A DNA stretch of 64,000 bases from Verrucomicrobiota bacterium. GTDB taxonomy: Bacteria; Verrucomicrobiota; Verrucomicrobiia; Chthoniobacterales; JAFAMB01. Where the stretch lies: contig JAFAIO010000144.1 in assembly GCA_019236675.1 (NCBI GenBank), positions 34 to 64,033 of the forward strand, given 5' to 3'. Shown one piece after another: positions 1 through 42,134 of the stretch; the stretch's first letter is position 1, and each line of letters begins with the position of its first letter. The notes under the pieces are model-generated. The model was not told the DNA's origin and searched no databases. It was given only the letters and a program-made list of their open reading frames with translations. Both the position numbers and the translations under genes were made by a program.

Positions 1-678
1 GTCGACGTGGGTTGGGGTAGTCTCGGAGATCCCAGCGCTATAAATTGGGGTTCTGGCTGGGGCGGGGGTGTCGGCTCGAGCGTAGTAGACTTTCAGATCG
101 GCTTCGTTGGCGCGGGAAATCCAGATGTCCAAGACATGAAATCAGGGCAAGCTGGGCAATCGGATTCCACACAGGAATTGGATCCAGTAGTCGTAACGTC
201 TCCTCCCTGGCAGGAGCTCTGGAACTCGATCTCCTCGTGGTTCCATTCCCAGCAACTGGAGGCCCAGGCGGATCTGCCTAATGTTACTTCGGCCCTGCAA
301 ATCAGCATGAACATCGCGCAGCTCGCCACTGGCGCCGGCGAGGTCAGCGCTGTCCGTACAGTCGTAAAAACAGAGCAAGCGTTGGCATTAGGGCTAGAGT
401 CACACGGCCTCCAGGCCTTCGCCGAAGCGAAAGGTGCTAAGCTGGCGACCGGCGATAACTGGCAAGAAATCGTAAGGCAAGGGCTAGCTGATCCAAATAC
501 AACAGTGCACGTTAACTTGGACGGCGTGGACGTTTGGGGGGGAGTGTCTCGAGCGGCAGCAGGAATCGAGTATGGAGCGACAGACTGGGAGCTATTGCAG
601 ATCTATCAAAATCCGCAATATTGGGACACTATTCAATTCTGGCGTGGTGGAGTACAAGTGCCGAACCCGTTTCAATGA
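1..678 (+). CDS. C-terminal end of a larger protein that runs off the left edge. A Gly/Trp-rich linker is followed by a ~150-aa terminal domain of unknown family (candidate polymorphic-toxin C-terminus).
   Basis: The frame is open from nt 1 (track ORF 7..678). The stop TGA at 676-678 overlaps the next ATG (ATGA at 675-678). I recognised no family motif by eye. Confidence 0.5.
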   Translation, partial: VDVGWGSLGDPSAINWGSGWGGGVGSSVVDFQIGFVGAGNPDVQDMKSGQAGQSDSTQELDPVVVTSPPWQELWNSISSWFHSQQLEAQADLPNVTSALQISMNIAQLATGAGEVSAVRTVVKTEQALALGLESHGLQAFAEAKGAKLATGDNWQEIVRQGLADPNTTVHVNLDGVDVWGGVSRAAAGIEYGATDWELLQIYQNPQYWDTIQFWRGGVQVPNPFQ

Positions 679-1070
679 GTGCGATTTCACCTTTCTCAAG
701 TAGCCGTGACTTTCAGGTGTGGGAGTACCAAGTAAGCCACGGTCACTTGCTGATCCGCAGCCCAAAATCGCCAGGCACACTCGATGAGCCCAAACAAACT
801 ACGAACGTGGATCTGCACTTTTGGGGAGTCGATTATTTCGAGCTTCCTCGCATGTTGAGGGGCATAGAAATTGCAGCGCCAACGAGGGAGGAATTGGAAC
901 GAATCGAGGGTCTGTTAAAAGTCCCGTTTTTAAAGAAACAAGCGGTTGTGCTCTGCTCAAGCGACCGGCGTTTTGTTATTGTAGCGATCGGCTACACAGT
1001 AAAGGAAAATCAATGGGACATCTTTCAATCGCCAATTGAATTTCGCTCTCAGTTCCGACGTGAGCTTTGA
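675..1070 (+). CDS. Small (131 aa) cytoplasmic protein translationally coupled to the upstream C-terminal domain; candidate immunity partner.
   Basis: An in-frame ATG at 675 lies inside track ORF 534..1070 and overlaps the upstream stop in an ATGA arrangement. There is no signal peptide or TM segment. The portion from 534 to 674 would overlap the upstream gene by about 145 nt and is discounted. Confidence 0.45.
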   Translation: MSAISPFSSSRDFQVWEYQVSHGHLLIRSPKSPGTLDEPKQTTNVDLHFWGVDYFELPRMLRGIEIAAPTREELERIEGLLKVPFLKKQAVVLCSSDRRFVIVAIGYTVKENQWDIFQSPIEFRSQFRREL

Positions 1071-1271
1071 ACTCACATCAGCAAGGAAGGAGACGACCAC
1101 GGCGCACCTTTTAAAAGCACCTAATCCTAATCCCTACCTTTTGCTTCAATGGTGGAACTTTGGAGACAGTCAATAATATTGCCGAAGCTTCCCAAGAAAG
1201 ATCAACGCTAAGGTGACAGCCACGGCAGCGAATGTAACAACCGAAACGCTCTTAACAAACCGAGCCCATGA

Positions 1272-2672
1272 CCCTTCAGGATCTTAGCCCCCGGGGCTCA
1301 TCCGTTCATTGCGGGAAAGGATTCAGGGTCGGTGGCAGGGTTCGAGATCCTGAGGCGAATTTGCGAAGAGGAACCAAGAAGGCCTTCCGATTGCGCGCAG
1401 ACGCAAGACCGCTCCTTCTACAGGAAGTTGAGCGGGGATCTGGAAGCCGTCGTGTTGAAAGCGCTACAAAAGAAACCCGGCGATCGCTATAAAAGCGTCG
1501 AACATTTTATTGACGATGTTGAAAGTTTCCTGGAGCGTCGTCCGGTTTTAGCGCGGCGGCAAAGCTGGTGGTATCAAACACGTAGATTAGCCAGTCGTCA
1601 TCCAAGCGCTACGGTCTCGGTTTCGATAGCAGCAACTGTCGGGATTTTAGCTCTCGCCGGCATTCTAAGTTCGGATCGAGCGGCAAAACAGGAACGTGAC
1701 TATGCTTTTCGGCAACGCGAGCTCGCTGCATCTACGGCTAGAACAATGATCGACGAGACTGCTTCCTCGTTGGGGACCATGTCGGCACCTATTGAGCACC
1801 GGCTCGAATTGCTCAATCGGATTGTGGCGGTTTTCGATGAACTCGATTCGACTAGCCGCAGCGGTTCTGATCCGGCCAAGAGCGCTCTGGAGATACGAGC
1901 CGAAGCCCAAACTCAAACGATCCTCGCGAATGCTCTTGAGGAATTGGGTGATCTCCAAGCCGCCACGCAGCGCGCCCAGAGCGCGGAGGTCCTCACGAGA
2001 AACTTGGTGAAAATCGCGGTCACTGATCCAGATGACCAACTACTCCTGACAAAGGCGCTTCTGACCAGGTACGGTATTGCGTGGAAATTAGGAACCGCAA
2101 AAACGATGGATGCAACGTTAGCCGAGGCTATTGCGACATTGCGGGGACTGGAAAAGGGAGCCGATCTAACGCCAAATTCGCGCCATCAGCTAGAAATCCT
2201 TGTTTGTAACGCGCTAGCGCTTAAGGTCCGAGCTTATGATTCTCTGGTCGACCCGCAGGAATCATTGCGATTGCTTACGGAAGCTGTCAATTATGGTGAA
2301 CCGGCCTACCTGACCCACCGGCTTGAGCCGGAAGCCGTAGATTGCTACGCCGGCAGTCTTGAAACACTGGGAGCGTTCTACAAGAGTTGGGGTCGGATTG
2401 CTCTTATGCAGGAGACAGTTCGGAGGGCGTTAGCGATTCGCCGCAAAGCTGCAGATGAGGCTCCGGACGATATCGCGTTGCAGCGCCTCGCCGACGCCTA
2501 CCGTGTTGAACTCACCCTCGGTCCCTGGGCGTCGCGTCTATCCGCACGCAATAGGTGCAACCGTTTCGAGGCGTCGAAACCCGTGCGAGCTAATAGAGCG
2601 GAATGCAACGCCCCTCCGAATGGGTGGGAGAACACGCGTCCCCTTTTCACCTCTCATCACTCACCACTTTAA
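1272..2672 (+). pseudogene. Remnant of a TPR-type Ser/Thr kinase lacking both the catalytic domain and the C-terminal third; paralog of the gene at 29908..32811.
   Basis: The translation is collinear with the middle of the 967-aa kinase (GDRYKSVEHFIDDVESFLERRPV, TM segment, ERDYAFRQRELAAS, RALAIRRKAADEA). The frame opens only after a TGA at 1269-1271 at ...GAHPFIAG, downstream of where the kinase domain would be. Similarity ends at about 2515, where a repeat arm begins. Confidence 0.7.
2522..2665 (+). repeat. Solo arm of repeat family A (same family as the arms at 47884-48013 and 48293-48437).
   Basis: It shares GGGCGTCGCGTCTAT, GCGAGCTA, the 21-mer GCGGAATGCAACGCCCCTCCG (2598-2618) and a TTCACCTCTCA tail with the arm at 48293-48437. 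Confidence 0.7.
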
Positions 2673-4465
2673 AGAGTGCCAACCAGGGCGACTGGTGCCG
2701 AAAGCTGTGAGGGCAACGGCATCACGACTTGTTCGCGTAACGGGATAAAGCGAGATAGATCAAAGACCTGGTCATGAAGCCTTAGCAAGGTGCTTCTGTG
2801 ACCCACACTGATGACGGTGGGTTGCCATGACCCAGAACGGAGCAGGCTGTACAGGCGTGCCTCCCAGGGTTCGCCTAAGCCCGAGGTTGCTTCGTCAAGG
2901 AAGAGGAGCTTCGGTGCGGCCAGCAGCACTCGAGCAAAAGCCAATCGCTGCTGCTCCCCGATCGACAGTCGTTGGCTCCAGTCTTCGACAACATTTAACT
3001 CCTCAACTAACCCATCCAACCCAACATCTCTAAGTACGTTTTTGAGTCGATCGGCGGAAAAACCGGTTCTGTCAGGGTTAGGGTATAACAACGCATTGGT
3101 AAGCGTTCCAAGTGGCAGATACGGACGCTGGGGCACAAATAGAGCGTCTTCCTCACCCACATTAATTTCGCCGCGACCAAAGGGCCAGACTCCAGCGATT
3201 GCTCGCAGCAAGGTGCTTTTACCTGTTCCGCTTGGTCCGGTAATTAGCACCGCTTCGCCGCGGACCGGTGCGAATCTGATCCCGCGCAACAGGGGAGTCC
3301 CATCTGGTAAATCCAGATCTAAATTATCGACATCAACCACCCGGTCGCTGCGTCGAATTACGATCTGCCGCCGGGCGAAGGCCGGCGTCTGCAGCCCAAG
3401 GAGTCGTTCCTGGAACGTAGTGAGCCGATCGGTGGCAGCTTGCCACGCGGCTATGTCGGGGTAGCGATTGATGATAAATGAAAGCGAGTTGTAAACGTAG
3501 GAAAAAGCACTGGCTACTTGCATCAAGCCGCCCCACCCAATCTGCTTTGCGAAATAGCGGGGCAAAATCACTAACAGCGGAAAAACCACCGCAACTTGTG
3601 CGTATCCTTGGGTTAACCAGTTAAGACGCATCTGCCTCCCCATAATCATTCGGAAATTGTTGCAGATGTTTTGTAACCGCTCCTGGCAAATGTCCTGCTC
3701 GACCGGTTCGCCACCGTAGGACGCAACGCTTTCGGCGTTCTCGCGCAACCGGGCCAAGCCGAATCGGAAATCGCCTTCCAGACGCTGGCCGGTTAGATTC
3801 AATTGCACGAGCGGACGGCCGATTTTCACTGTCAGCCAGGTGCCAACGCCCGCATAAAGTAAGGCTAGCCACACGAGGTAACCGGGGACGTGGACCGTGC
3901 CCAATTTACCTAGAGGAATATCCGCTTGCCCGGATAGCCCCCAGAGAATAACAAGAAAAGAACCCAGGGTAACCAAAGATGTTAGTAGACCCAGGGAAAG
4001 CGTCAAAACGTAGTTCGTAAATTGATTGATATCCTCAGCGATCCGTTGATCTGGATTATCCACTCCGCTTGTCAGTTGCAATTGGTAGTACGCACGGTTA
4101 GAAAGCCAGGCGTTTATGTATCTTCGGGTCAGCCACCGCCTCCAGCGCAGCTGCAACAGCTGTTGTAAGTACACAGCGTACACCGACAACGTTATGCCAA
4201 GACTGCCTAAAATGAAGAAGATACCGAGCTGACCGAAGATTTGGTCGACGTCAAATGCCTGCAGCGCATTGTAGAAATTTCGGTTCCACGCATTGATTCC
4301 GACGCTAGTGCAAACCGTGCCTAGATTAATTAGGACAACGCCTAGAAGAAGACCCCAAGCGGACCATTTTTCTTCTGACATCCAATAAGGCCTGACAATG
4401 GACCACGCCTCGCGCGCAAAGGCTCGCTTAGTCATGGTCATTCTCATCTTTCTGAGCATTAACAT
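2669..4465 (-). CDS. ABC transporter with a fused permease and ATPase (YddA / ABCD-like, ABC_membrane_2 type).
   Basis: It has an N-terminal multi-TM region (NRNFYNALQ, RRWLT, DNPDQRIAEDI), Walker A GPSGTGKST, signature LSIGEQQRLAFARVLL and Walker B LLFLDEATSGL. The start is placed at the MLMLRKMRM cluster (ATG at 4465; alternatives down to 4435). The track start at 4699 is probably too long. Confidence 0.85.
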   Translation of the reverse strand: MLMLRKMRMTMTKRAFAREAWSIVRPYWMSEEKWSAWGLLLGVVLINLGTVCTSVGINAWNRNFYNALQAFDVDQIFGQLGIFFILGSLGITLSVYAVYLQQLLQLRWRRWLTRRYINAWLSNRAYYQLQLTSGVDNPDQRIAEDINQFTNYVLTLSLGLLTSLVTLGSFLVILWGLSGQADIPLGKLGTVHVPGYLVWLALLYAGVGTWLTVKIGRPLVQLNLTGQRLEGDFRFGLARLRENAESVASYGGEPVEQDICQERLQNICNNFRMIMGRQMRLNWLTQGYAQVAVVFPLLVILPRYFAKQIGWGGLMQVASAFSYVYNSLSFIINRYPDIAAWQAATDRLTTFQERLLGLQTPAFARRQIVIRRSDRVVDVDNLDLDLPDGTPLLRGIRFAPVRGEAVLITGPSGTGKSTLLRAIAGVWPFGRGEINVGEEDALFVPQRPYLPLGTLTNALLYPNPDRTGFSADRLKNVLRDVGLDGLVEELNVVEDWSQRLSIGEQQRLAFARVLLAAPKLLFLDEATSGLGEPWEARLYSLLRSGSWQPTVISVGHRSTLLRLHDQVFDLSRFIPLREQVVMPLPSQLSAPVALVGTL

Positions 4466-5103
4466 ATTGCGTGCCAAACCTTCGGATCCGCTGTTTTTCT
4501 CCGAATTCCGGGCGATTAAGCACACATGACGCGGGTAGATCGTCCGTTCGAAATCTCGTAAGCTCGATTTTCCGGCTCCGCCGAACGAGACACACTGATG
4601 CTTACCGGATACGACGGACCAGGTCGATTGTGCCGGAGTTGGGATCGTGGCTTTCCCGATCTTGGGAATTAAAAGGGTGCCGGAAAGCGAACGATGCAAC
4701 GGCAGCGCCGTGTCCCATTGCGGGCCCTCGGCTCGGCACGCATTCCGGCGCAGTCACATCTTTGTAAGGCGAAACGCCAAATCGTTGCAAAAATTCCGGG
4801 ATCTTTTGGGAGCCTTCGCCCTGCCAACATGGGGTCTCCGTTCAATTCAAACTATTTTCAAAATCTCATTGACGGTTACGATCTTGATTTCATATCAGTC
4901 TCGTCCGATCGCGTAGATACCCGCTCCCCCGCGGGGCCTTGTCGGCGCGGGATAACAAGGAAGTAAAAAAGGAAAATGCGTTCGGTTAATGCTGTCTATG
5001 GGTTCGGTCTGACGATCAATCCCTCGTTGGTCCTGCCGGATCCTCTCTGATGGTTCCGGTCCCAAGCTGGGACCCTAATTTCTCATCCGCGGTAAAAGTG
5101 TAC

Positions 5104-5229: not shown

Positions 5230-7314
5230 ATGCAATATCTCCGTTGTCGCGTGAGTAGGTTCTTGCCAACTCGCGCTAGTCGCTATGTCTCAAATTGGCA
5301 GGCGCTCAAGACCTTCGTCTTTGGGCTAATGCTTGTACCCTTAATCGCGCCTGGCCATGCGTTCGGCCAAGCGAAAACCGTCGAACTGTCACCGCTTCTA
5401 GCGAAATCGAGTTTGCTCGGTGCGGTTGATCAGAATCAACAAATCAGTATCGTTCTGACTCTTCCTTTGTCGAACCCTCAGGGTGCCGCTGAGTTTGTAC
5501 AACACGTTTCAAAGCCGGGAGACCCACTTTTTCACCAGTACCTTACACCGCAAGAGTTCGCAGCCAGGTACGGCGCGAACGCCGCAGATTACGCTGCCCT
5601 TAAACAGTGGGCGGCCAATAATGGGCTTGCGATCGTGCATGAGTCTCTGGCTCGTACCTCACTAACGGTGCGTGGCTCAACGGCTCAATTGCAAACGCTG
5701 TTTAAGACCGAGCTCAATCGTTATCGTTCACCGGACGGCAAACAATTCTACTCTGCGGCCATAAGGCCGACCGTACCGGACGAGATCAGCTCACGCGTGA
5801 GCTGCGTGATCGGCCTGACCAACAGCGCCCATTATGCTTCTTTAGCCAAACCGTACAAGGTTCTGGGAGAAGACGCTGCTGTTCCGGCGGCCAGCCCCGA
5901 TATCGGCGGCACCGGCCCCGGCGGAAGCTACAGCGCTTCGGATCTAAGAACCTGTTATCAGATCCCGAACTTCGGCAATCTCGTTCCTGAAACCGTGGCC
6001 GTCTTTGAACAGGGTGGCTTCTATCAGTCGGATGTGGACAAGTACCTCAAAGCCATGAAGCTGACGCACCCGCCGGTGACCTTCGTCTCGGTTGATGGAT
6101 ACAACGGCGCCGTCGACAACAACGATGTTGAGCTCGAGGCGGTCCTGGATATCGACATGATCATTGGGATCAATCCCAAGGTGCAAGAGGTATTGGTGTA
6201 TGAAGATGGCAACGATCCGTTTGGCGTTGCGATAATCGATGCCCTAGATCAGGTCGCTACCGACAACAAAGCCCAAACCCTCAGCATTTCTTATGGGATC
6301 GACGAGGTTCAACAAGGTGACGCTCAGATCGCAGCCGAAGGTCAGGCTCTAACCCAGTTACAAACAGAGGGAATAACCGTCTTGGTCAGCGCGGGCGATA
6401 ACGGAGCCTACGGCCGAACCGGGGGATTCTCTAACCCAGCTCAATTAAACGCTCCCGATCCCGGATCGCAACCGCTGGTAACCTGCGTCGGTGGTACCAC
6501 GCTGACCACCGGACCGGGCGAAGTCTACAATGGTGAAGAGGTATGGAACCGTTTAGCGCTTGGTTTCGGCGCCACCGGCGGCGGTGTTAGTTCGTACTGG
6601 CCAATCCCAAGTTGGCAATTGCCTTCGTATGTAACCGGCAACGGCGGATCATCCACTTATCGTAGTGTGCCGGACGTTGGCGCCGTGGGCGATCCATTGA
6701 CCGGGGTGGGCATCTATTCCTCGCCCAATGGCGGTTGGGTGCAGATCGGCGGTACTAGCGTTTCGGCCCCGATTTGGGGTGGTTATATCAGTGTCTTGAA
6801 CGCCGGTATGCAATACCTGTTAGGCCAGAAGATCGGGTTCTTCAATCCGACATTGTACAGCATCGGCTTCAATGATCCGGCCAATTACCTATTTCCGGTT
6901 CCGGATGGGTCAAACGGGAACGCCGCCCTTTATGGAGGCACCCCTGGATATAACGCCGGTTTTGGTTACACCAATTGTACCGGCTCGGGCACAATTTTCG
7001 GCGGCGGTTTCACCACCCAAGTGATACTCGCCTCCACCACGGGTGGGAAAGCTCCTTCCGGTTTTGTGTTCTTTCCATTGAAAGTAACCAAAACGTCGGT
7101 CGAACTCCACTGGACAGAGTCAGACCTGGCCACCGGGTACATCATCGAGCTGATAACTCCGACTTCTCCTTTCAACACGTCGGCTGCCTATGTCACTAAG
7201 AAAACCAGGTTAACCATCACCGGACTCACGCCCGGAACCCCTCACTATCTCTATGCTTACGCCGTAAATGCAGGCGGCCACACAGAAGAGTTTACCGACT
7301 TCGTTACTAAGTAG
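5230..7314 (+). CDS. Secreted S53 (sedolisin/kumamolisin-type) serine-carboxyl peptidase with a prodomain and a C-terminal FN3-like domain.
   Basis: It has a signal peptide and a pro-kumamolisin-like N-region (PLFHQYLTPQEFAARYG). The E-x3-D motif lies in VELEAVLDID (nt 6127-6156), followed by SAGDNG. The GGTSVSAPIW catalytic Ser codon is at 6757-6759. An FN3-like tail follows. Confidence 0.9.
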   Translation: MQYLRCRVSRFLPTRASRYVSNWQALKTFVFGLMLVPLIAPGHAFGQAKTVELSPLLAKSSLLGAVDQNQQISIVLTLPLSNPQGAAEFVQHVSKPGDPLFHQYLTPQEFAARYGANAADYAALKQWAANNGLAIVHESLARTSLTVRGSTAQLQTLFKTELNRYRSPDGKQFYSAAIRPTVPDEISSRVSCVIGLTNSAHYASLAKPYKVLGEDAAVPAASPDIGGTGPGGSYSASDLRTCYQIPNFGNLVPETVAVFEQGGFYQSDVDKYLKAMKLTHPPVTFVSVDGYNGAVDNNDVELEAVLDIDMIIGINPKVQEVLVYEDGNDPFGVAIIDALDQVATDNKAQTLSISYGIDEVQQGDAQIAAEGQALTQLQTEGITVLVSAGDNGAYGRTGGFSNPAQLNAPDPGSQPLVTCVGGTTLTTGPGEVYNGEEVWNRLALGFGATGGGVSSYWPIPSWQLPSYVTGNGGSSTYRSVPDVGAVGDPLTGVGIYSSPNGGWVQIGGTSVSAPIWGGYISVLNAGMQYLLGQKIGFFNPTLYSIGFNDPANYLFPVPDGSNGNAALYGGTPGYNAGFGYTNCTGSGTIFGGGFTTQVILASTTGGKAPSGFVFFPLKVTKTSVELHWTESDLATGYIIELITPTSPFNTSAAYVTKKTRLTITGLTPGTPHYLYAYAVNAGGHTEEFTDFVTK

Positions 7315-7366: not shown

Positions 7367-9550
7367 ATGCACTCTCGATCTTATTCAACCGGTGCTCTGC
7401 GACCGGCACCCCTTTGTCGTCGCGCCAGCAGTTGGCGGCCTCTCGTCGCAGGGGCACTTGGCTTTATACTCGCCGTGTGGATCACTCCCGGCCTGGTATG
7501 CGGACAGGCAGCGACCGTCGAGCTTTCCCCGTTGGTAGCAAAATCCACCTTTGTTAGTTCCGTTGACCGAAACCAGCAAATCAGCGTGGCACTCACATTA
7601 CCGCTGTCGGATGCAAACGGCGCCGCCGCGTTTGTGCAGCACGTTTCCCAGCGCGGAGACCCGCTGTTTCATAAGTACCTGACACCTCAGGAGTTTGCCA
7701 ACCGGTTTGGAGCGAACCAGTTCGATTATGCCGCTTTGAAACAATGGGCGGCTGCCAACGGTCTAACCATTTCGCAAGAGTCCATTGCCCGAACCGTTTT
7801 AACGGTTCGCGGCACCGCGGCTCAATTCGAGTCGATTTTTAACACGCAGATCAACAACTATCGATCAGCGGCCGGCGACGAATTCTATTCCGCTGCCGTC
7901 AAACCAACTATCCCGAATGCGATTGCCGGTAAAGTTTCAGCGGTGATCGGTTTGACCGGAGGCAAGACGCGCACCCCGCATGTCAAAGTGGGAAAGGTAT
8001 TTGGCGAAAACCCGGCTCAAACTACTGCCCACAATACCGCCGACTACGGCGGGACTGGCCCAGGCGGCGCCTACTCTCCCTCGGACTTGCGAACGATCTA
8101 TTCGATTCCGACCTTCGGTAACCTTGACAACCAGACGGTGGTCGCCGTGTTCGAGCAAGGCGGCTTTTTCAAATCCGATGTCGAGAAATACCTCAATAAG
8201 ATGAACCTACCCCATCCACCCGTCACCGTTGTAGGCGTGGATGGCTATGACGGCACTGTCGACAGCTATCAGATTGAGCTCGAGTGCGTGATCGATATCG
8301 ATATGGTGATCGCAATTAATCCGAACGTGCAAGAGGTGTTGGTTTATGAAGATGGTATCGACACCTTCCAGGTCGCCTTGCTCGATGCTCTGAATCAGGT
8401 CGCCACAGATAACAAAGCGCAGGTCTTGAGCATCTCTTACGGTCAGGACGAGGGCAATCAAGGTAACGATGCGATGAACGCCGAGAATGGCATTCTCGTT
8501 CAATTAGCGTCTCAAGGGATCACGGTGACGGCAAGCTCCGGAGATCAGGGCGCTTATGGAGATGGTTATAACTACCCTTACAACGTCTCTGATCCCGCTT
8601 CCCAGCCCTACGTTACCGGAGTTGGTGGCACGACCTTGTTTACCGGCAAAGGCCAATTGTACGTCGGTGAGACGGTTTGGAACAGTTCGGATGTTTCAGT
8701 GGCAGCATCTGGAGGCGGCATCAGTTCTTTTTGGCCCTTTCCTAGCTTCCAGGGTGAGATGGACCCTTACTTCATCACCTACCTGGGAGGTTCTTTAACC
8801 TACCGCAATGTTCCCGATGTCGCCGCCGTGGCCGACCCAAACACGGGCGTGGCGGTTTACTCCAAGTACAATGGCGGCTGGCTGTCAGCCGGTGGTACAA
8901 GTGTCTCTTCGCCAATCTGGGCGAGTTACCTGAGCATCGTCAACGTAGGCATGAGGTACTCCGGGTTAGGTAACATTGGTTTCTTCAACCCTATCCTTTA
9001 CAATGTAGGTTACTGGGAGAACCCATTCGTTGTGGTTGGGGCTAAAACCGCCAGTAACAGCTCGATCGCAACGGACGGTTACGGCAAACCTGGTAATTTT
9101 TTGTATCCGATTACCTCCGGGACAAACGGCGACATTACCAGGTACCCCGGCTATCCCGGGTTCAGCGCAGGCGGCACTTTTTTTCAACCTCTTTACTGCA
9201 ATGCTACCGGTAACGGCTCTATCATCGGCGGCCTGTTTGCGACGCAGATTCTGATCTCAGGAACTCAGAGTGGAACCCAAACGGGCAATATCACTAATTT
9301 CACAGTGACCCCGGGTAGTACCACAGCAAAAATCAAATGGTCGCCAGTTAGCGCTGCCTTAGCCTACGTCGTTACCGTCGGTCATAATGGCCTGAGTTTT
9401 AGTGTCATTGATGCCTATCTTACCAAGGACACCTCTATAGAGGTCAAAGGTCTCATTCCTAACGACCCCTCCTATTCGGCAACACTCTGGGCCTTTAATG
9501 CCAGCGGCTTTTCCAACACCTACCCGATCTACTTTACAACCAAGAAATGA
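7367..9550 (+). CDS. Secreted S53 sedolisin-type peptidase, tandem paralog, with an FN3-like tail.
   Basis: The motif set matches the upstream gene: IELECVIDIDM, SSGDQG and GGTSVSSPIW. It starts 52 nt after the upstream S53 gene. Confidence 0.9.
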   Translation: MHSRSYSTGALRPAPLCRRASSWRPLVAGALGFILAVWITPGLVCGQAATVELSPLVAKSTFVSSVDRNQQISVALTLPLSDANGAAAFVQHVSQRGDPLFHKYLTPQEFANRFGANQFDYAALKQWAAANGLTISQESIARTVLTVRGTAAQFESIFNTQINNYRSAAGDEFYSAAVKPTIPNAIAGKVSAVIGLTGGKTRTPHVKVGKVFGENPAQTTAHNTADYGGTGPGGAYSPSDLRTIYSIPTFGNLDNQTVVAVFEQGGFFKSDVEKYLNKMNLPHPPVTVVGVDGYDGTVDSYQIELECVIDIDMVIAINPNVQEVLVYEDGIDTFQVALLDALNQVATDNKAQVLSISYGQDEGNQGNDAMNAENGILVQLASQGITVTASSGDQGAYGDGYNYPYNVSDPASQPYVTGVGGTTLFTGKGQLYVGETVWNSSDVSVAASGGGISSFWPFPSFQGEMDPYFITYLGGSLTYRNVPDVAAVADPNTGVAVYSKYNGGWLSAGGTSVSSPIWASYLSIVNVGMRYSGLGNIGFFNPILYNVGYWENPFVVVGAKTASNSSIATDGYGKPGNFLYPITSGTNGDITRYPGYPGFSAGGTFFQPLYCNATGNGSIIGGLFATQILISGTQSGTQTGNITNFTVTPGSTTAKIKWSPVSAALAYVVTVGHNGLSFSVIDAYLTKDTSIEVKGLIPNDPSYSATLWAFNASGFSNTYPIYFTTKK

Positions 9551-14193: not shown

Positions 14194-14309
14194 GTACCGT
14201 TGCAACAACTTGAAGGTAGGCCGACTCCCGTCTTGCCAACCTCGGCCTTTTCCGATAAAACCCGCTCAGTTCGGGCGTTTTCGTTGGTGGAAATCAGGGA
14301 TTCTTGGCC

Positions 14310-17102
14310 ATGATTGTGCTTCCCGATCAAACTCGATGCCGGCGTTGTCACGGGACGATTAATCCTAAGCAGTCATACCATGGATACTGCCTTCCCTGCT
14401 TGTTGAACCCTGCGCTCGAATCTGAGCATTTGGCCGAGACGGAACAGACTAGCCGGTTTGAACCGTACGAAATCTTGAAGCATGCCGATGGTTCCCTTGT
14501 CGAGCTAGGTCGAGGATCAATGGGCGTAACCTACCGTGCGCTCGACACCAACCTGCAGCTGCCCGTGGCACTGAAGGTTATCGACTTTAAGGTGGCCGGT
14601 GAAGAAATAAACTGGGAACGTTTTCTACGGGAAGCCCGGGCGGCCGCCAGATTACGCCATCCGCATGTGGTCAATGTCCTCTACTATGGTCTGGCTAGTG
14701 ACGGCCAATGCTATTACGCAATGGAGTTGGTCGAGGGCGAAACGCTGGCCGAACGCGTTCGACGCAGCGGCCCTCTGCCAGTAGCAGACGCTTTAGAAAT
14801 CATCGCTCAGGTCGCAAGCGCACTAATGGCAGCCGAAAAACAGGGATTGGTGCATCGAGATTTAAAACCGGCGAATCTCATGTTGTTAAACGGGCCTGGC
14901 ATCAACGTCAAAGTGATCGATTTTGGACTCGCTAAGATCGTCGGCACTTCAGAACCATCCGATCGGATCACCCATCACGGTTTTATCGGCACCCCGGCTT
15001 TCGCCAGTCCCGAACAATTTTCAGGCAAAGAAACCGACCAGCGTTCGGACTATTTCTCCTTAGGTAGCACCCTGTTTTATTTGCTAACCAGTACGCCGCC
15101 GTTCAAAACCGATCGGGTCGCTGAGCTCGCGGGCCAGATGAACAATCGGGCCCGGCTGGTTGCCCGGCTCAAAGCCGCACGGATGCCGGTCCCGCTCCGG
15201 ACCTTGGTGCTTTCCCTTCTCAGCGCGGCTCCTGAGGACCGCCCGCAGAATGGACAAGCTCTGCTCGAAGCCATCACCAGAGCACGCCAAGGAACCAGAA
15301 GAACCAAACGGATCGCGGCCAAAACCTATTGGGCTGTCGCTACCGCGTTTGGACTGATTTTAGCAGCAACGATGTTCTGGTTTCAGCGTGGAATGGTCAC
15401 AAACAATAACTCCACCAGATCCATCGCGGTTCTGCCGTTCGATAATCTTAGTCCGACCCAAGACGACTCTTATTTCGCCGACGGAATCCAGGACGATATT
15501 CTGACCAACCTGGCAAAGATTGCTGATCTTCAAGTGATTAGCAGGAGCAGTGTTCGGGTTTACCGAGACTCCAATCGCCCCTCTCCGCGAGAGATCGGTC
15601 AAGCGCTGCACGTGCATTACCTTCTCAATGGCAGCATCCGGCGTGAAGGCAACAGGATCCGGTTAATAACCCAGCTCGAGGAAGCCCAAACCGGACGCGA
15701 GCTTTGGGCGGAACGTTATGACGGGGACTTAACCGATGTTTTCGCCATTCAAGCAGAATTGGCCGAGGCGATTTCGCAGGAACTACGCGTCAAGCTCTCC
15801 GTCGCCGAAAGAAATTCCATTGGCGACATCCCAACCCGTGATCTCGCCGCCTATGAGCTCTATCTGCATGCTAAAGAGCTGGTCGAGAATTACGATCATG
15901 ATACTCAAAGTCCGGAATCGCTCTTCAGCGTTGTCCGTCTTCTGGATGACGCGGTGCATCGTGACCCAAGTTTTGCGTTGGCCTGGTCTACTCTCGCAAG
16001 AGCTCATGACGATCTTTATTGGTACAATGGAGACCATACCGACGCCAGGCGGACCTCGGCGGAGACGGCTCTCCAGACTGCTCTGCGGCTTCGACCTGAT
16101 CTTGGTGAAATTCATCTTGGGCAAGCCCATCACCTTTTGGTCATTACCAACGATTATCCTGCAATTCGCCGCGAACTCGATATTGCCCGGCGCACGTTAC
16201 CAAATTCTGCCCAGCTCTACGGCTTGTTAGGAACTATCGCTTCGCGCCAAGGAGACTGGCTCGAAGCCATGCAGGATTACGAACGGGCTTCAACTCTGGA
16301 TCCCAGAAATATCCGCCTGATTGTCGCGCGAAACGGTATCTATGATTTTCATCGCCAATACGACCAAGTCCGCCTTTCGTTTTCTGATGCTGCCAGGCTG
16401 GGGGCCTCGGCTGAATCCATCGATTTCAAAAAGGCCTTAGTGAAGTGGCAAGAGAAAGGTGACACCTCGACACTTCATGCGCTTCTGGATGAACCAACCG
16501 GGCCGCTCCGAGCAGTCGGACTCGACACGCTCGTTAAAATCAATTGCGCCGTCGCCGACCGCGATTTTACTGCCGCGGAAAGAATTCTGGCGGCGGATCA
16601 CCAGCCGGCGTTTGAAGCTGAGACTAGAAAATTGGTGAGCCGCGATTTCGTCCTCGGCTGGGTCAAAAAGTCTGCCGGCGATGAGACGGCCGCCAAAGCC
16701 GCTTTCGAGAATTCGCGCCCATCGCAGCTCGCCTACGTCCAACAATGGCCGAATGAACCAAATCCTTTGATGTTATTGGCACTCAACGATGCAGCACTTG
16801 GGCGGACGGAAGACGCTTTGAAGGAAGGGCGCCACGCAATCGCGCTGCGACCGATCTCACAAGATGCATGCGACGGTCCTGTGTTGGCAGCCGATTTAGC
16901 ACAGCTTTACTTGTGGTGCGGCGAACGCGAGCTCGCAATCAAACAACTCGAGTCTTTGGAGCAAGTACCGCGTGCCCTAACGTACGGTGATCTAATGATG
17001 CCGGACTGGGATCCATTGCGCAACGACCCCCGATTCCAGAGGGTTGTATCTCAACTGAAGCCGATCCCGATCGTTAACCGGTCGGAGCCGGTGAAGAAAT
17101 GA
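14310..17102 (+). CDS. Transmembrane Ser/Thr protein kinase (STK1) with an N-terminal Zn-ribbon-like motif and a periplasmic sensor plus TPR-like region.
   Basis: It has a CxxC-x13-CxxC motif, kinase motifs HRDLKPANLML, DFGLAK and GTPAFASPEQ, and one TM segment. A SIAVLPFDNLSP...DGIQDDILTNLAK module and a helical-repeat C-terminus follow. The start is the ATG at 14310 (a TTG at 14304 is also possible). Confidence 0.9.
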   Translation: MIVLPDQTRCRRCHGTINPKQSYHGYCLPCLLNPALESEHLAETEQTSRFEPYEILKHADGSLVELGRGSMGVTYRALDTNLQLPVALKVIDFKVAGEEINWERFLREARAAARLRHPHVVNVLYYGLASDGQCYYAMELVEGETLAERVRRSGPLPVADALEIIAQVASALMAAEKQGLVHRDLKPANLMLLNGPGINVKVIDFGLAKIVGTSEPSDRITHHGFIGTPAFASPEQFSGKETDQRSDYFSLGSTLFYLLTSTPPFKTDRVAELAGQMNNRARLVARLKAARMPVPLRTLVLSLLSAAPEDRPQNGQALLEAITRARQGTRRTKRIAAKTYWAVATAFGLILAATMFWFQRGMVTNNNSTRSIAVLPFDNLSPTQDDSYFADGIQDDILTNLAKIADLQVISRSSVRVYRDSNRPSPREIGQALHVHYLLNGSIRREGNRIRLITQLEEAQTGRELWAERYDGDLTDVFAIQAELAEAISQELRVKLSVAERNSIGDIPTRDLAAYELYLHAKELVENYDHDTQSPESLFSVVRLLDDAVHRDPSFALAWSTLARAHDDLYWYNGDHTDARRTSAETALQTALRLRPDLGEIHLGQAHHLLVITNDYPAIRRELDIARRTLPNSAQLYGLLGTIASRQGDWLEAMQDYERASTLDPRNIRLIVARNGIYDFHRQYDQVRLSFSDAARLGASAESIDFKKALVKWQEKGDTSTLHALLDEPTGPLRAVGLDTLVKINCAVADRDFTAAERILAADHQPAFEAETRKLVSRDFVLGWVKKSAGDETAAKAAFENSRPSQLAYVQQWPNEPNPLMLLALNDAALGRTEDALKEGRHAIALRPISQDACDGPVLAADLAQLYLWCGERELAIKQLESLEQVPRALTYGDLMMPDWDPLRNDPRFQRVVSQLKPIPIVNRSEPVKK

Positions 17103-18078: not shown

Positions 18079-18113
18079 CTGCTCACTGCTCACTGCTCAC
18101 TGCTCACTGCTCA
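18079..18113. repeat. Heptanucleotide tandem array (CTGCTCA) x5 plus a partial copy; it contains the stop codon of the giant gene.
   Basis: I counted five perfect copies directly. The minus-strand TGA at 18104-18106 lies in the fourth unit. Confidence 0.95.
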
Positions 18114-21100
18114 CTGCCCCCTTCCTCCCCTCCATACCCCAGCACCTCGACCGTTATCAGCGACGGCGCGACTTCCTGCTCGGTTGCACTTGTCTGTTGT
18201 CTGGCCACTTCCTGCGCGACGCTGCTATTCGCTCCAGCACTATTGCTCGCGGCGATAGCGGCACTGACATTTGGCCCCACGATCGTCGGGAGGCCGACTG
18301 CGTGCCCTTGAACTTGAATGTTCTGCACATGCAAGATTTCCAGAGCCGCAAGTGTTAGATTGCCGGAAACTCGGATACCCGCTTCGCCGGCATCGATGAT
18401 CCCATTGGGTGCGAACAGATCCACGTTCCCCGGCGGCACCCCGGTCACGCCGACCAAGGTTGCGATCCCAGCGCCGGTTTGGGGTGTGGCGGGGATCTCC
18501 GTCATATTGACCCAGAGGTCATAGAGCGTATTGGGAGAACGCGTTACAATTGAGGTCTGTTTACCCTTTCCTGCATTAATGTCTCCGTGGCTCGACCAGA
18601 TCAAAATATCGCCACCCAATTCGGTGAATATGCGTGATTGCGCCACGACGACGCTCTGGTCAGCAACGATATTGATGTTTCCACCTTCCATAGTGATTAA
18701 CCCGGGTTCCGCCGTATCGGTCTGACCTGTCAAGTTTGGAACATCACTTTCGACGCCGAGGACCACTCCACCTCCCGGGACCATAAGGTTGATGTCACCG
18801 CCTTGTTCGGTCCGGATACGCGCATCATGGTAAAGCGTCAGCGACCCACTATAAGCCGTGGTTGGGACACCAGCTGCTACCGAACTACCAGGAAACAGGG
18901 TCTCGATGGCTTTATAACCCCGACTATAACCGACTTTCGTGGCAGCATACGATTCGCCGCCGGCTTTAATCTCATCGAAGTAAATTTCTGAAATGAGTGG
19001 CCATTGTTTAGCAGTCGATAATTGTTCGAAATCAGCTAACGCTTCGACTGAGGTCAGCGTCGAACCCTCGAGCTGATTCATGTAAGCCACGAGCCGAGGT
19101 AGATAATTCTTCTGGACCGACCCTGCGTTCGCCGGATTCAAATAGGTGTTAATAAACCCGGTGATATCCGCTCCGTTCAAGCCAACACCGACCGATATGT
19201 CGATGTTCGCACCGCCCGGGAGTAAGTAGTATGGATTGTCCGTGTTACCGACGCTTTCGATACCGATACCCTGGGTATTGTATTCGCCCGGCTCGGAGAC
19301 GATATTGCGTCCAGCCTGCACCACCAAAGTTCCCGGCCCCTCAACCCGGATATTGAAAACGTCAGTGCCTAAAATTCCGCCGGGTTGTGCGCTTGTGATA
19401 TCTCGTCCCGCTTCTACCAGCGAAGAATCGTTGGGACTCGTGTTTTCGATGTTAAACACCGGCTGAACAATATCTAGACCTGCCCTAATCAACACGCGTT
19501 CTGGCGTTGCCAGCGCCACACTGTTCAGGCTCCCCTCTACCGCATAAACAACCACGGTATGCGGATCATTAGACAGAACCAGATTGGATGGTGGCCCTAC
19601 AAACACATTACCGGCCGGTCCGACCGGTCCAATATATTCGTAAGCATCTAAAATCGTTCCCGGATAGTCGTAACCCGACGGGGCGGCAATCATGCCCAGA
19701 TCAGGAATACCGCTCGGTTGGAGGTAAACCCCATTTGACTCAATGCTCATATCCGCAGCCGTCATACTGACACCGAAGCCCCGGACATCTTGCTGCGCCA
19801 GAATACTCAGGCGGGCGGTTGGTGCAGGCAACGCAACGAGATAATCGCGGAAAGAGAGATCTCCCATGATCGAGCCGTTCGCGGCGACAAATGAAAGGAT
19901 GGGCGGTGCGAAACTACCTAGCACCGTTACGTCGCCACCTGCGGCGAATTCACTGAAAGAGCTGTTGGCAGTCATGCTGCCAAAAAACCCATAAGGTACC
20001 GGCGCATTGGCCGGATCCGTAAGGCCTGGGTTTAGTCCTTCCAAACCCCAGTACTGGGTCCAGCCACCTTCTTGCTCTGCTATGCCATCATTGTTCTGGC
20101 GGAGTGTACGCGTTGGGTCACCAATCAGCCCATAAATATTTTGTTGCGAATAAACGGTAAATTGGGAGTCGCTGATCATAAAATTGACGCGCTCCTGGAC
20201 CCCTTGGCTGTCTACGGCCGTACCCATATCTGCTGCTTCAATCAACGCGGTGCCTTTTCCGACGTAAAGATTGGCATCGTTCAGCGAGCCGCCGACGCTC
20301 AGATTGAGGTTACCACCGCCGGTGATAACTACCTGGTTGTTGCTACCGACTCGCCCCGTGGTTGGCAGGCTCACGTCTACGTTCGTCATGTTACCGCCAA
20401 CGCTGACGTTAACATTGCCGCCGCCGAGCGCACCTAGTCCCAAGAACCCCGCCACCGTTGGCGCGATGTCCGCACCTATGCTGTTTGCATAAGCCATGTC
20501 CTGGTAATAAGTACCGAAATTGATGAACCAGGTGGGACTGGCTTGGTTTGGTTCGGTCCAAAGCCAATAGGGATCGAGCTCGCTTCCGGCATAACCGCCG
20601 AGATTAGTCGATTGGCTGACCAAGCTGCCTTCGACCTTCACGGTTAGATTGCCGCCTCCGGTCGGATAACTTGGGTATAAAGCCGTCGGGTACGTATTGT
20701 CCCAGGGAACGCCGGGCGATTGATAGCCTAGGTAAGAATTGTTTCCGACCACCGACGAAATATATTGGCGGACCGGCATAGTAAATCCGGCGACCGCAGC
20801 CGACGGCTGGCCTGCGGTATAAATCCCGAATTCTGTCTGGATATCAATGTTGTCTGCGGCCGCCAGCTCTAGGTCGCCTGTTCCGGTGCGAACGACGCTT
20901 GGGATTTCTAAAGCGGCGCCAAGAGGCGAGGAACCGTTGCTATCGACCAGGTAGGGAGCATTGAAAATGACGGAACCCGGCTCGGGATCATTCGTGGAGG
21001 CGGCGGGCACGTTAATCGCCGCTATCAAACCGAGCGGGTCCGCAGCCTTTAAATCAGCGCCTCCAATCAAACGCAGGCTCCACGACGGACCACCCGCCAG

Positions 21101-24100
21101 GGGTGCAATGGCGAAGATCGGGCCGTCCGGAGAAACAACCGGCGCGCTAAATCCGTCGCTGAGGCTGCCGTTGATAATCAGATTGTCAGCCGCCCGTAGA
21201 GTTAGGACGCCCGGCGCTCCGTTAAACCGTAGACCTCCCAGATCGATGCCGTCGTTGTAAATGTAACTCGTACCAGCGTACGGATTGCCAGTGCTATTCG
21301 AAGGGTTAGTCAGAAGGGTCAAATTCCCGTTGCTGCGCAGTTCGATTCCCGGCAACAACTGATACGCAGGATTGCTCGCCAAACTACCCAGGCTGGCGTT
21401 GATTGCGCTGGCGTTGGCCATGAAATTGTTAGCATCAACCACCGCCTGGCTCGTTGTCGTCAGATTCTGATCCACATACGGATTGCTGGTTACATCATAG
21501 ACCGCTACCCCTTCCACGATCAGTTTGTCCGCTCCGGCGACAGTCACTCCCTGATTAGAAATGGCGACGCCAGTGTCATTGATTCGGGGTGCTCGCAACC
21601 AGACTTCATTGCCATTCGGCCCTGTCCCCGAAACGTCGATGATCGAGCCGCCGGCTAAAGTCAACGTCCCACTGCTCTTCCCATCCAGACCAAGAAACAC
21701 GATGCCGCCGGCTCCCTCCGTACTCGTGGCGGAAGCATCCAGAATTGCGGTACTTGCCAGCGTCAGATTGACCCCGGCGGTCAGACGGATGGTGCCGCCA
21801 CTCGGACCGCTGGCGTTGATTGTACCGTAAACCAAGACGCTACCGGTTGAGGCGGAAAGCTCGACATCTTGCGCAGTGATATTTCCGACCGAGATATCGC
21901 CGGTTGCCAATGTAAGCGATTGTTCACCGGTAAAAGTAGTAACGGCGCCAAGCAAACTGGAGGCATCACCGGAGTTTAGGTTCAAGATTACTTTGCCTCC
22001 GGTATACCCTTGCGGTGCAGTACCAAGAAAACTACCGCCTAGCTCTGCTGCCCCGTTCGGAGCGATTACCGTAAAAGTTCCTGCGTCACCGCCAGTATCG
22101 GAGTCTGCAACATCCAGATGCGAAACCGTGGTCGAAGAGAGCGAGCTGCCGCTGACATTGACAACGGCGCCCGGCGCGACAACCACGTTGCCATTGGTGG
22201 TTTGCAACGTGAGCGAACCGGCCGGCGCAATCCGAACCACATCAAAAAACGGGGTTATCTCACCGGCTACACTGATGTCCGCACCGCTGCCTAAGGCAAT
22301 ACCGTTCTGGGCCGTGAAGGTAATCGCTCCGGAGGGTAAAACGATCTTAGTATTCTCAACCATCGTCTGTGCATTTACGTTGAGTGTCGCTCCGCCTACG
22401 GCGACCGAAGTCACAGTGGTAACCGTCCCAGACGGGAGAAAGCTCACGGCGCCGCTGGCTATCAGTTGCGTGACCGCTCCAGCGGCATCATTCAGGTTTA
22501 ATCGAGAATTCACTGAAGTCACTAGCGGTGTTTGGATGGTCAGATTACCAAACACGTCGAAAGTCCCCGGGATGATCTCACCGTTGTAGTAAGTTGTACC
22601 GCCTACGGTCTCCCCGGCGTATGCGGTTGCTACCGCTTTACTGCTGGTGACGTCACCGGTCGCGACTAGCATGACGTTGCTAAATCCATTGAACGTCATA
22701 ATGCCTCCGCCTCCCAGGACAACTTCGGTCGCATCAATCGTAAATTGCCCCTGCCCCACGCCTGTACCGCTGGTGGCAAGCGTCGTACCTGTGCCTACCA
22801 ACGTTACTTTCCCTGCCGTAATGGTGACATTATCGCTAGCTCCACCAAACCCGTTGATGGTCGGTGTCTCCAAGGTCAGCTGGGACAGCAACGGCAACCC
22901 GGTGGCACTGTTAACAATGCCCAGACTGGCTGAGCCGTACACATCGATCTCTTGAGTCGCATTCAGGATGAGGTTGCCGGTCGGGACAACCCCATGACTC
23001 GGATCGCCTTGAGACAACGCCGCCAGCAGACTATTCGTTAATATCAAACCAGTGCTAGCCCCGGAACCAAAAGCAATGATCGGAGTCTGGACCGTGACGG
23101 TCTGACCGCCAAACCGCGCGTTAGGATCGATGCTGATATTTTGCGCACCCAAAAATAGCGTGCTGCCTGCGTAAATGCTGGCTCCCGGGTCGACAGTTAG
23201 GGAGGCACTCCCTTCGGTCTGATTAACCGGAAGCGGATTACCTGCTGCATCCAGTACCGCATCCGATACGAGAAGAAATGCACCCGGACTGGTGAGGGTT
23301 ATCGAGCCCAAGCTCGCTCCGGAAATTGGATCGAGTGGGAACTGCGCGGCGATGGGCGCATATCCAGTTGAATCGATTCGTGCGTTTGCCGCCACCGTAA
23401 TCCCTCCGGTAGCTGTTAACATGATCTCAGGCCCGCGTAACACCGCATTCGCATCAACAATAATCGTTTGAGCGGACGGAGTGATATCCACCGAGCTGTT
23501 GGTCGAATCGAAGTTCCGAACGCCGCCAAGTAGCAAGCTCTGTACGCCAAGTGCGTCTAGTTGACTGGCCTGAATGCCGACATAACCAGGCTGCGCGGTG
23601 TCGCCCGGACCCAGGATATCGAGGTTCCCCACCACGATATCAGCTTGCCCGCCTCGCGCTCCGGGTGCATACGAAAAGTTGGTAGCCCCTTGGAAAACAA
23701 AATTGCCGGTGTTAGTCGTGATATCGACTATAAGATGGCCGGCATCCCGCGCCAGATATGGCGTGACTGTGCTAGTAGAAGTTGCCAGCGCAGGAAAGAA
23801 ACTGTCACCCGTCGCTTGTGTGTACTCTGAATACTCTCTGAGGACGGATCCAGGCGACACCAGAAAGACCGACGGCAACGAGTCTTGTACGTCGGTGTTA
23901 GCTACCATCCGATAGCCGATCACTTGATAGGAACCGTCCGCCAACTCGAGATTAGTCAATCCGGCGGTTGTAGTCTGACCAGCTTCAACGCTCAGTTTGT
24001 AGGCTCCAGGCAACAATGCATAATGTCCAGGTAAAAGGGTGTAATCGCCGGCTAGCAATCCCGGAATAGCAGTCAAATAGACTTGATCCCCAACGGTAAG

Positions 24101-29635: not shown

Positions 29636-29664
29636 CGTCGGCCTCGCAAGCGAGGCAGCGCTCC
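29588..29664. repeat. Repeat family B, compact copy: perfect 26-bp inverted repeat with a 25-nt loop.
   Basis: GGAGCGCTGCCTCGCTTGCGAGGCCG (29588-29613) is the exact reverse complement of 29639-29664. The flanking 2 bp also pair. Confidence 0.9.
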
Positions 29665-29857
29665 AGGACTGCACTTGGTGAGCGGAGTACCCCCCATCTT
29701 TAGTAGAGAACGCGAGTTCTAGTTTTCTATGGTTACAATCTCGCGAAGTCTCGGCTACCTGCTTCGAGCGTCGTAAAAAGTTCCCCACACCGCACTTAAT
29801 GCGGAATTCTTCTGCGAATGGGGCCAGAAATTTTCCGCCTCGGGGCAACCCTTGTTT

Positions 29858-29878
29858 TGCTATCTGCTATTTGCTATT
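29858..29878. repeat. Heptamer array TGCTATC-TGCTATT-TGCTATT.
   Basis: Read directly. A two-unit copy lies at 13357-13370 within a longer shared block. Confidence 0.8.
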
Positions 29879-32811: not shown

Positions 32812-32828
32812 TTCAGAATCCTATGTCT

Positions 32829-36104: not shown

Positions 36105-36116
36105 ATTCTCTTGTTG

Positions 36117-38912: not shown

Positions 38913-38981
38913 TGCTTTTACCTTTCGATACAGAACTTGTGTCATCTGCGGTTTGTTTTGGGCTTGATACATGGCCGTTCC

Positions 38982-41828: not shown

Positions 41829-42134
41829 TTTGGGTTTGCGGCGAAAAAGGGGTTTTCACTTTCGTGGATCAAACCTGAGGTCGCCCCGCCGGTGTGCATC
41901 AGCCTCTCAAGGTGCGCATCCCTCCGCCAGACGAGGTTCACGGTTCCAGAAAAGGAAATGCGAATCCCGACGATTTTCGGGGCCAAAGAATTTTACGGAA
42001 GCGAAAATTTCCAGCCGTCGGATGCGTTACAAGCCGAACCTCGCGGATCCCGCAGCAGCACTTACGGCAAAAAAGAGCCTTGCCTTTCTATACAGATCTT
42101 CGCCATTAAGCGAACTCCTTGAACCCCTCCTTCC

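Follow-up and report, generated by a model that had tools for sequence, protein, structure and literature searches.

The window analysed here is a 64,000-nt stretch of DNA from a Verrucomicrobiota bacterium (assembly GCA_019236675.1, contig JAFAIO010000144.1), and its left edge cuts into a large gene. An Rhs (YD-repeat) polymorphic toxin gene very likely ends here, with its cognate immunity gene directly behind it. The features concerned, in window coordinates, are as follows.

1..378, forward strand: linker rich in Gly/Trp and of low conservation, within the C-terminal region of the Rhs protein, in open frame 1; homologues do not reach here, and there is no Pfam or NCBIfam match.
379..678, forward strand: putative toxin domain of ~100 aa (ALALGL...TDWELLQI...PNPFQ) with its TGA stop; profile match E = 5e-45.
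675..1070, forward strand: immunity-type gene of 131 aa; its start overlaps the toxin stop, and its family is the downstream partner in 39 of 41 genome loci.
1071..1271, no strand assigned: non-coding junction that separates the toxin/immunity module from the kinase fragment, with stops in all three forward frames.
1272..2672, forward strand: piece of a Ser/Thr kinase-TPR gene that bounds the module on the right, recognised by BLASTP to an intact paralogue.

Frame 1 is open from window base 1 to the TGA at 676-678, and the ATG (675-677) of the 131-aa open reading frame (ORF; 675-1070) overlaps this stop in an ATGA at 675-678, an overlap that the preliminary description of this DNA had already recorded. 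The same description had placed a Gly/Trp-rich linker ahead of the terminal domain, which agrees with the first ~125 residues encoded in window frame 1, and had given the domain itself ~150 aa. The latter figure was too large: the conserved unit is only ~100 aa (window 379-675), and homologues cover 28-56% of the 225-aa query, always its C-terminal end. The last ~100 residues of the frame read ALALGLESHGLQAFAEAKGA...VHVNLDGVDVWGGVSRAAAG...GATDWELLQIYQNPQYWDTIQFWRGGVQVPNPFQ. No promoter-like site was found in the junction at 1071-1271. A terminator-like hairpin on the minus strand (1262-1274) overlaps the end of the junction, and such sites are no commoner in the scanned region than in shuffled sequences. 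The GC content dips slightly over the module (0.46-0.52 vs 0.53-0.59), which was not counted as evidence.

Six public contigs encode exactly the same 131-aa protein, and they are 99.4-100% identical to the window. Contig L001 (metagenome-assembled genome GCA_019236345.1) is 99.9% identical and continues 1533 nt further upstream. Its 736-aa product matches RHS_repeat (48.4 bits; cut-off 22) and TEN_YD-shell, and the frame runs through YD/RHS repeats into DPSG-x19-DPTGL (DPSGFAAGNHLYRFVGNNPVTGTDPTGL), a motif that ends ~70 nt before window base 1. We take this element to be the self-cleavage motif that ends an Rhs core. A Gly/Trp-rich linker of ~145 aa lies between the motif and the ~100-aa domain. 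Because the upstream frame holds RHS/YD repeats and an intact core-end motif, the carrier is an Rhs protein, and the left edge of the window, judged by sequence, is the last part of an Rhs-type protein. The upstream carrier had been singled out for a check in the preliminary description; on contigs 99.9% identical to the window, it proved to be an Rhs/YD-repeat protein whose core-end motif is intact. The rest of the window shows no homology to Rhs, and a search of the JGI metagenomes with an exact 50-mer from L001, aimed at extending the Rhs gene upstream, returned 0 matches.

The toxin/immunity module and the same downstream DNA occur behind three different left flanks (L001 1313-1533, L003 1-216, and L004 1-979). 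The Rhs core of L003 differs from that of L001, with 69 of 87 nt identical before the breakpoint (~21% different); past the breakpoint, L003 is near-identical to L001 up to an indel in a poly-Gly run, and the two contigs share the same two differences from the window over 1-1399. In L004 (99.4% identity), the homology begins just before the core-end motif, no Rhs core is present, and a 292-aa ORF and an IS200-like Y1 transposase gene lie upstream. In the L003 and L004 variants, the breakpoint lies immediately 5' of YRFVGNNPVTGTDPTGL, a conserved segment of the core end, inside DPSG-x19-DPTGL after DPSG. Rhs toxin modules classically recombine at a joint in this position.

These flanks bear on the possibility that the module is an orphan or remnant in its source genome, off a working Rhs gene, and that only the immunity gene matters, guarding the cell against the toxins of its neighbours. 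L004, in which the transposase gene and the 292-aa ORF stand where Rhs repeats would be, speaks for this explanation, as do the start of the window within the C-terminal region, the truncated toxin remnants that are frequent in the family (12 of 41 loci), and the kinase gene fragment that adjoins the module and indicates a past rearrangement. However, nothing interrupts the toxin frame on its way to the left window edge, window 1-1323 differs from L001, L003, and L004 at one base only (window 40, where the linker residue is I in the window and L in the others), and L001 and L003 run upstream into Rhs sequence; L002, which is 99.94% identical to the window, adds merely 75 nt upstream. An orphan module is regarded as unlikely, and the copy in the window is read as the end of an Rhs toxin gene.

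The distribution of the terminal domain was analysed by a profile search of 1.84 billion representatives, which gave 569 cluster representatives at E ≤ 1e-3 and 276 at E ≤ 1e-10. Among the best 150 of the 569 matches, the domain is nearly always at, or within a few residues of, the C-terminus of proteins that range from 57 to 7908 aa. A word-indexed search found 15 relatives that match the last ~100 residues only and are fused to PT-TG, PT-HINT, or Rhs-core ends. In the long members, Pfam identified the carrier architectures RHS_repeat + DUF6531 + Transglut_core, FG-GAP + TcdB_toxin_midN or midC, Big_3_5 + Laminin_G, Peptidase_S8 + RHS (Paenibacillus), PKD + RHS (a Dojkabacteria genome of the Candidate Phyla Radiation, CPR), PT-HINT, and PT-TG; the domain was also found in short stand-alone or truncated copies. 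All of the relatives are named "hypothetical" or "uncharacterized" at their source. Taken together, the sequence matches present the terminal domain as a swappable module on many unrelated polymorphic-toxin carriers. The candidate toxin/immunity pair of the preliminary description gains support from this modularity, from the Rhs carrier, and from the linkage to the small ORF described below.

One of these carriers, in a Candidatus Dojkabacteria metagenome-assembled genome (L021 1-6327), is a protein of >2100 aa with 19 RHS-repeat matches that ends in the toxin domain; the immunity homologue at this locus is divergent (E = 2e-9).

Conservation was calculated over 137 diverse toxin domains, with residues numbered from the window 367-675 domain. 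E75 is kept in 99%, W74 in 98%, N50 in 95%, T72 in 93%, D73 in 90%, and R62 in 89%, and the terminal N-P-F (N100, P101, F102) in 91-99%. No conserved His or Cys was found among these 137 domains. The domains are acidic and Trp-rich, with a median isoelectric point of 5.1 and 5.9% Trp.

The toxin and immunity proteins of the window had no match in Pfam, NCBIfam, PADLOC, or PHROGs at E ≤ 1. When 65 toxin and 25 immunity homologues were compared with Pfam one by one, only scattered single matches appeared, none of them recurring. Searches of PDB sequences with 14-, 25-, and 65-sequence profiles gave nothing below E = 0.26, and no polymorphic-toxin or immunity chain was listed. A literature search for the motif DWELLQ returned unrelated papers only. 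In sequence terms, both families are thus absent from every library searched and at the same time widespread. The preliminary description had been unable to place the domain in a known family, and the libraries searched likewise gave no housekeeping, structural, or known toxin match.

The 131-aa protein has 40 homologues of similar length, with E values down to 3e-81. Chance cannot account for matches on this scale in the two families. It contains no hydrophobic segment, with a maximum Kyte-Doolittle 19-residue mean of 1.28, in agreement with the preliminary description, which saw no transmembrane segment in this ORF; this speaks for a cytoplasmic immunity protein. The maxima across 25 immunity homologues are 0.78-1.84, all but one below 1.5, and the proteins are mildly acidic.

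Linkage of the two families was examined in one genome per species (41 loci), using six-frame translations searched with a profile of each family. In 39 of the 41 loci, a member of the immunity family is the next gene downstream and shares the strand of the toxin, at an estimated gap of about -19 to +39 nt. Going by their record titles, the loci come from about ten phyla or phylum-level groups: Verrucomicrobiota, Dormibacterota, Proteobacteria (Comamonas, Polaromonas, Duganella, Methylovulum, Saccharospirillum, and Glaciecola), Myxococcota, a CPR lineage, Firmicutes (Paenibacillus and Lachnospiraceae), Planctomycetota, Actinomycetota, Acidobacteriota, and Rhodothermales. Genetic linkage thus ties the toxin domain tightly to the 131-aa ORF family. 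The two loci with no downstream immunity match are L031, which has a corrupted C-terminus, and L052, a truncated remnant. The toxin and immunity genes of the metagenome loci L007/L008 and L012 overlap by 4 bases, like those of the window.

The state of the toxin gene varies among the 41 loci: the domain lies inside a long ORF in 15, forms a full-length stand-alone gene in 14, and is a truncated remnant in 12. The immunity gene is still present beside 11 of the 12 remnants, and tandem immunity copies were found in L013 (767-1480) and L048 (6113-6836). A protector that is kept or duplicated while the toxin decays fits an immunity gene and not a chaperone, and remnants that keep their immunity genes, together with tandem copies, are the usual pattern of orphan modules. 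In Paenibacillus cymbidii (L036 9216-9464), a second, truncated toxin and immunity remnant was observed 3 kb downstream of a full Rhs copy.

The same data can be set against the idea that the terminal domain serves as a tail, whether for structure, receptor binding, or chaperone docking, and that the downstream gene encodes a chaperone or adaptor. The domain is small and acidic, and no catalytic family can be assigned to it, which would suit a tail. Nevertheless, it sits past the Rhs self-cleavage motif, the usual position of a toxin; it swaps among unrelated carriers and, where only a remnant of it is left, the partner gene survives or has been duplicated; and the near-invariance of its polar E, D, R, and N residues suggests an active site. 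We consider a tail highly improbable.

Plasmids were searched by tblastn; the toxin was not found, and one orphan immunity homologue was detected. This lone homologue (L054 5001-5387; Hymenobacter sp. HDW8 plasmid NZ_CP049908.1, 272570-272893 region) has no toxin domain nearby, and the PLSDB gene table of the plasmid does not list it. Its neighbours are small hypothetical genes in a row on the same strand, which looks like an orphan-immunity island.

Another explanation would make the pair an intracellular toxin-antitoxin or anti-phage module that has been captured at the termini of large proteins and is not primarily an interbacterial weapon. Many members are indeed short stand-alone genes (~100-130 aa) with the partner gene next to them, several have no Rhs gene within 6 kb, and both families are unusually conserved for a toxin and its immunity protein (mean column identity in the first alignments, 65% for the toxin and 52% for the immunity protein). 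The gene order, however, is toxin then protector, as in polymorphic toxin systems, and the domain is fused to the pre-toxin modules PT-HINT and PT-TG and to Rhs/Tc cores, which serve toxin export. PADLOC and PHROGs gave no match, plasmids gave no toxin, and the stand-alone copy P0003 has a hydrophobic, signal-peptide-like N-terminus, as judged by eye only. A captured toxin-antitoxin or anti-phage module is very unlikely compared with an exported toxin and its immunity protein.

The AlphaFold (AF2) model of the toxin domain (pLDDT 92.4) has the order beta-alpha-beta-alpha-beta-alpha-alpha-alpha followed by a beta hairpin, which hints at a compact three-layer alpha/beta, Rossmann-like fold. The model of the immunity protein (pLDDT 85.3) is mostly beta with one helix, and Foldseek found no match to it in PDB at E ≤ 1e-3. 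The weak Foldseek matches of the toxin model, none of them significant, are to generic nucleotide-binding alpha/beta folds. They include a SEFIR domain (9ot1_Q; TM-score 0.60, E = 0.49) and the SMG6 PIN domain (TM-score 0.44), with E values of 0.24-0.49 for such domains, and also a cytidylyltransferase, kinases, and methyltransferases.

TIR and PIN domains are longer than the ~100-aa domain of the window; TIR NADases carry W-x3-E, and PIN domains carry a set of four acidic residues. The toxin model appears to share the general three-layer alpha/beta topology of TIR/SEFIR (STIR) and PIN domains, whereas W and E are adjacent in the window domain and the four-acidic set is not seen. Several candidate activities found no support, in part by comparison with known motifs: a TIR NADase for its motif spacing, PIN and Toprim for acidic residues after strand 1 that are not conserved, and deaminase, HNH, and PD-(D/E)xK enzymes for the lack of a conserved His/Cys/Lys pattern and the wrong order of secondary structure. 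A pore-former was not supported, as the domain has no hydrophobic helices, nor was a typical nuclease, as the domain is acidic.

The model and the conservation faintly suggest a toxin that works as an enzyme in the cytoplasm, and whose active site might lie around the near-invariant Glu of T-D-W-E-L, with D73, R62, and N50. Hydrolysis or transfer on a nucleotide or a cofactor such as NAD(P)+ is a tentative guess for the activity, more doubtful than not; a metal- or His-dependent nuclease ranks below it and is somewhat less probable again. The nucleotide or cofactor guess was placed first because the domain is Rossmann-like, acidic, and Trp-rich and has no conserved His/Cys or metal-site motif.

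By analogy with what is known of Rhs and Tc proteins, the YD shell would encapsulate the C-terminal region, and the aspartyl protease motif at the core end would cut it free. The released toxin would be delivered into a neighbouring cell, and the cytoplasmic immunity protein would bind and block it in the producer and sibling cells. Translational coupling through the ATGA may aid co-expression of the toxin and immunity genes.

Several points weigh against this reading. The Rhs N-terminus is outside the window and outside every contig found. Going by the flank of L004, some strains may hold the orphan copy only, and, L004 being an orphan version, the window copy too may be detached from a full-length Rhs protein. 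A toxin subfamily (L009 6211-7077, L010, and L011), which is PT-HINT-fused and carries "FPNLQF" in place of the Trp-rich helix (WW region), has next to it, on the downstream side, an 85-aa gene unrelated to the immunity family; the pairing thus has exceptions, and the 85-aa gene may encode an alternative immunity protein. Foldseek comparison of the toxin model with PDB and BFVD gave no match at E ≤ 1e-3 and no neighbour that reveals the activity. Finally, toxicity, neutralisation, and delivery are all properties that we infer.

Rhs-CT/RhsI pairs of enterobacteria and Rhs effectors linked to the type VI secretion system are the known Rhs polymorphic toxin systems. The window pair resembles them in the RHS repeats, the DPxG-x19-DPxGL core end, the variable C-terminal domain with a small immunity gene directly downstream, the orphan modules that retain a short piece of the core, and the recombination breakpoint at the core/CT junction; unlike them, its C-terminal domain and immunity protein belong to families that are not in Pfam, NCBIfam, or PDB. 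Relatives of the 100-aa domain also end Tc-toxin TcB/TcC-type proteins (TcdB_toxin_midN/midC + RHS) and PT-HINT and PT-TG carriers, whereas the window copy is on a plain Rhs core, as seen over 1.5 kb of upstream sequence.

Polymorphic-toxin C-termini have previously been mined for toxin-immunity families, yielding PT1-PT9 and their PIM partners (Nachmias et al., bioRxiv 10.1101/2021.10.19.465003). Two of these toxins, PT1 and PT7, are metal-dependent DNases that need conserved residues including His to be toxic, and D37 and H47 of PT7 (Bacillus cereus) were mutated as predicted catalytic residues (10.1101/2021.10.19.465003). The window pair is similar to PT1-PT9/PIM in that its C-terminal domain is short, unannotated, borne by diverse carriers, and followed by a gene in conserved synteny, and differs from PT1 and PT7 in that its domain has no conserved His. 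The PT7/PIM7 complex (8owu) was the top Foldseek match of the immunity model (E = 0.44, TM-score 0.35, not significant). Identity with PT7/PIM7 was rejected, as this match concerns the immunity model only, no PDB sequence match was obtained, and the toxin has no conserved His. The motifs that were looked for are absent from one supplementary file of the PT1-9 preprint (10.1101/2021.10.19.465003). By sequence, the window pair appears to be neither PT1 nor PT7, but it may coincide with one of PT2-6, PT8, and PT9.

The toxin/immunity family appears to be new, inside a textbook kind of Rhs toxin-immunity system whose existence will not surprise a specialist. Its definition would allow the annotation of many "hypothetical" gene pairs, orphan immunity genes included, over about ten phyla or groups. 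Polymorphic toxins have repeatedly given new enzymes, among them NADases, deaminases turned base editors, and (p)ppApp synthetases. The compact, confidently modelled 100-residue domain offers a candidate active site, hundreds of natural variants, and a predicted ready-made inhibitor. It is conceivable, although we would not expect it, that the pair represents a new toxin class with a fold and activity unseen among interbacterial toxins, for example a minimal Glu-dependent nucleotide-cofactor enzyme whose immunity protein perhaps acts beyond binding. If so, the class would span about ten phyla or groups, including a CPR (Dojkabacteria) genome.

To the right of the module, window 1272-2669 corresponds to residues 309-721 of a 970-aa kinase-TPR paralogue that is intact (29911-32820, minus strand), with 45% identity (BLASTP, E = 1e-103). 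The fragment has lost ~308 N-terminal and ~250 C-terminal residues, and its kinase domain is reduced to the last ~50 residues (NCBIfam PknB positions 229-279 only). A decayed kinase had been said to follow the small ORF immediately; decay is evident from the two missing ends, but the fragment begins ~200 nt past the small ORF. A second intact kinase-TPR gene is located at 14259-17099.

Other genes were observed in the window. An SbmA/BacA-like ABC transporter gene (2669-4699, minus strand; ABC_membrane_2, SbmA_BacA, and ABC_tran by Pfam on L001/L002) is convergent with the adjoining kinase fragment. A 3920-aa ORF at 18107-29866 (minus strand) has an N-terminal two-partner-secretion (TPS) domain and a C-terminal DUF3739 (filamentous haemagglutinin family), and looks like a two-partner-secretion exoprotein. 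Large secreted-peptidase paralogues are encoded on the minus strand at 34014-36116 (Pro-kumamolisin activation + Peptidase_S8 + fn3 by Pfam) and at 36120-38981 and 38985-41855 (Peptidase_S8 by Pfam). On the plus strand, a further secreted-peptidase paralogue lies at 5230-7314, with a Pro-kuma_activ match in L001, and a peptidase paralogue at 7367-9550 was recognised by its similar translation only.

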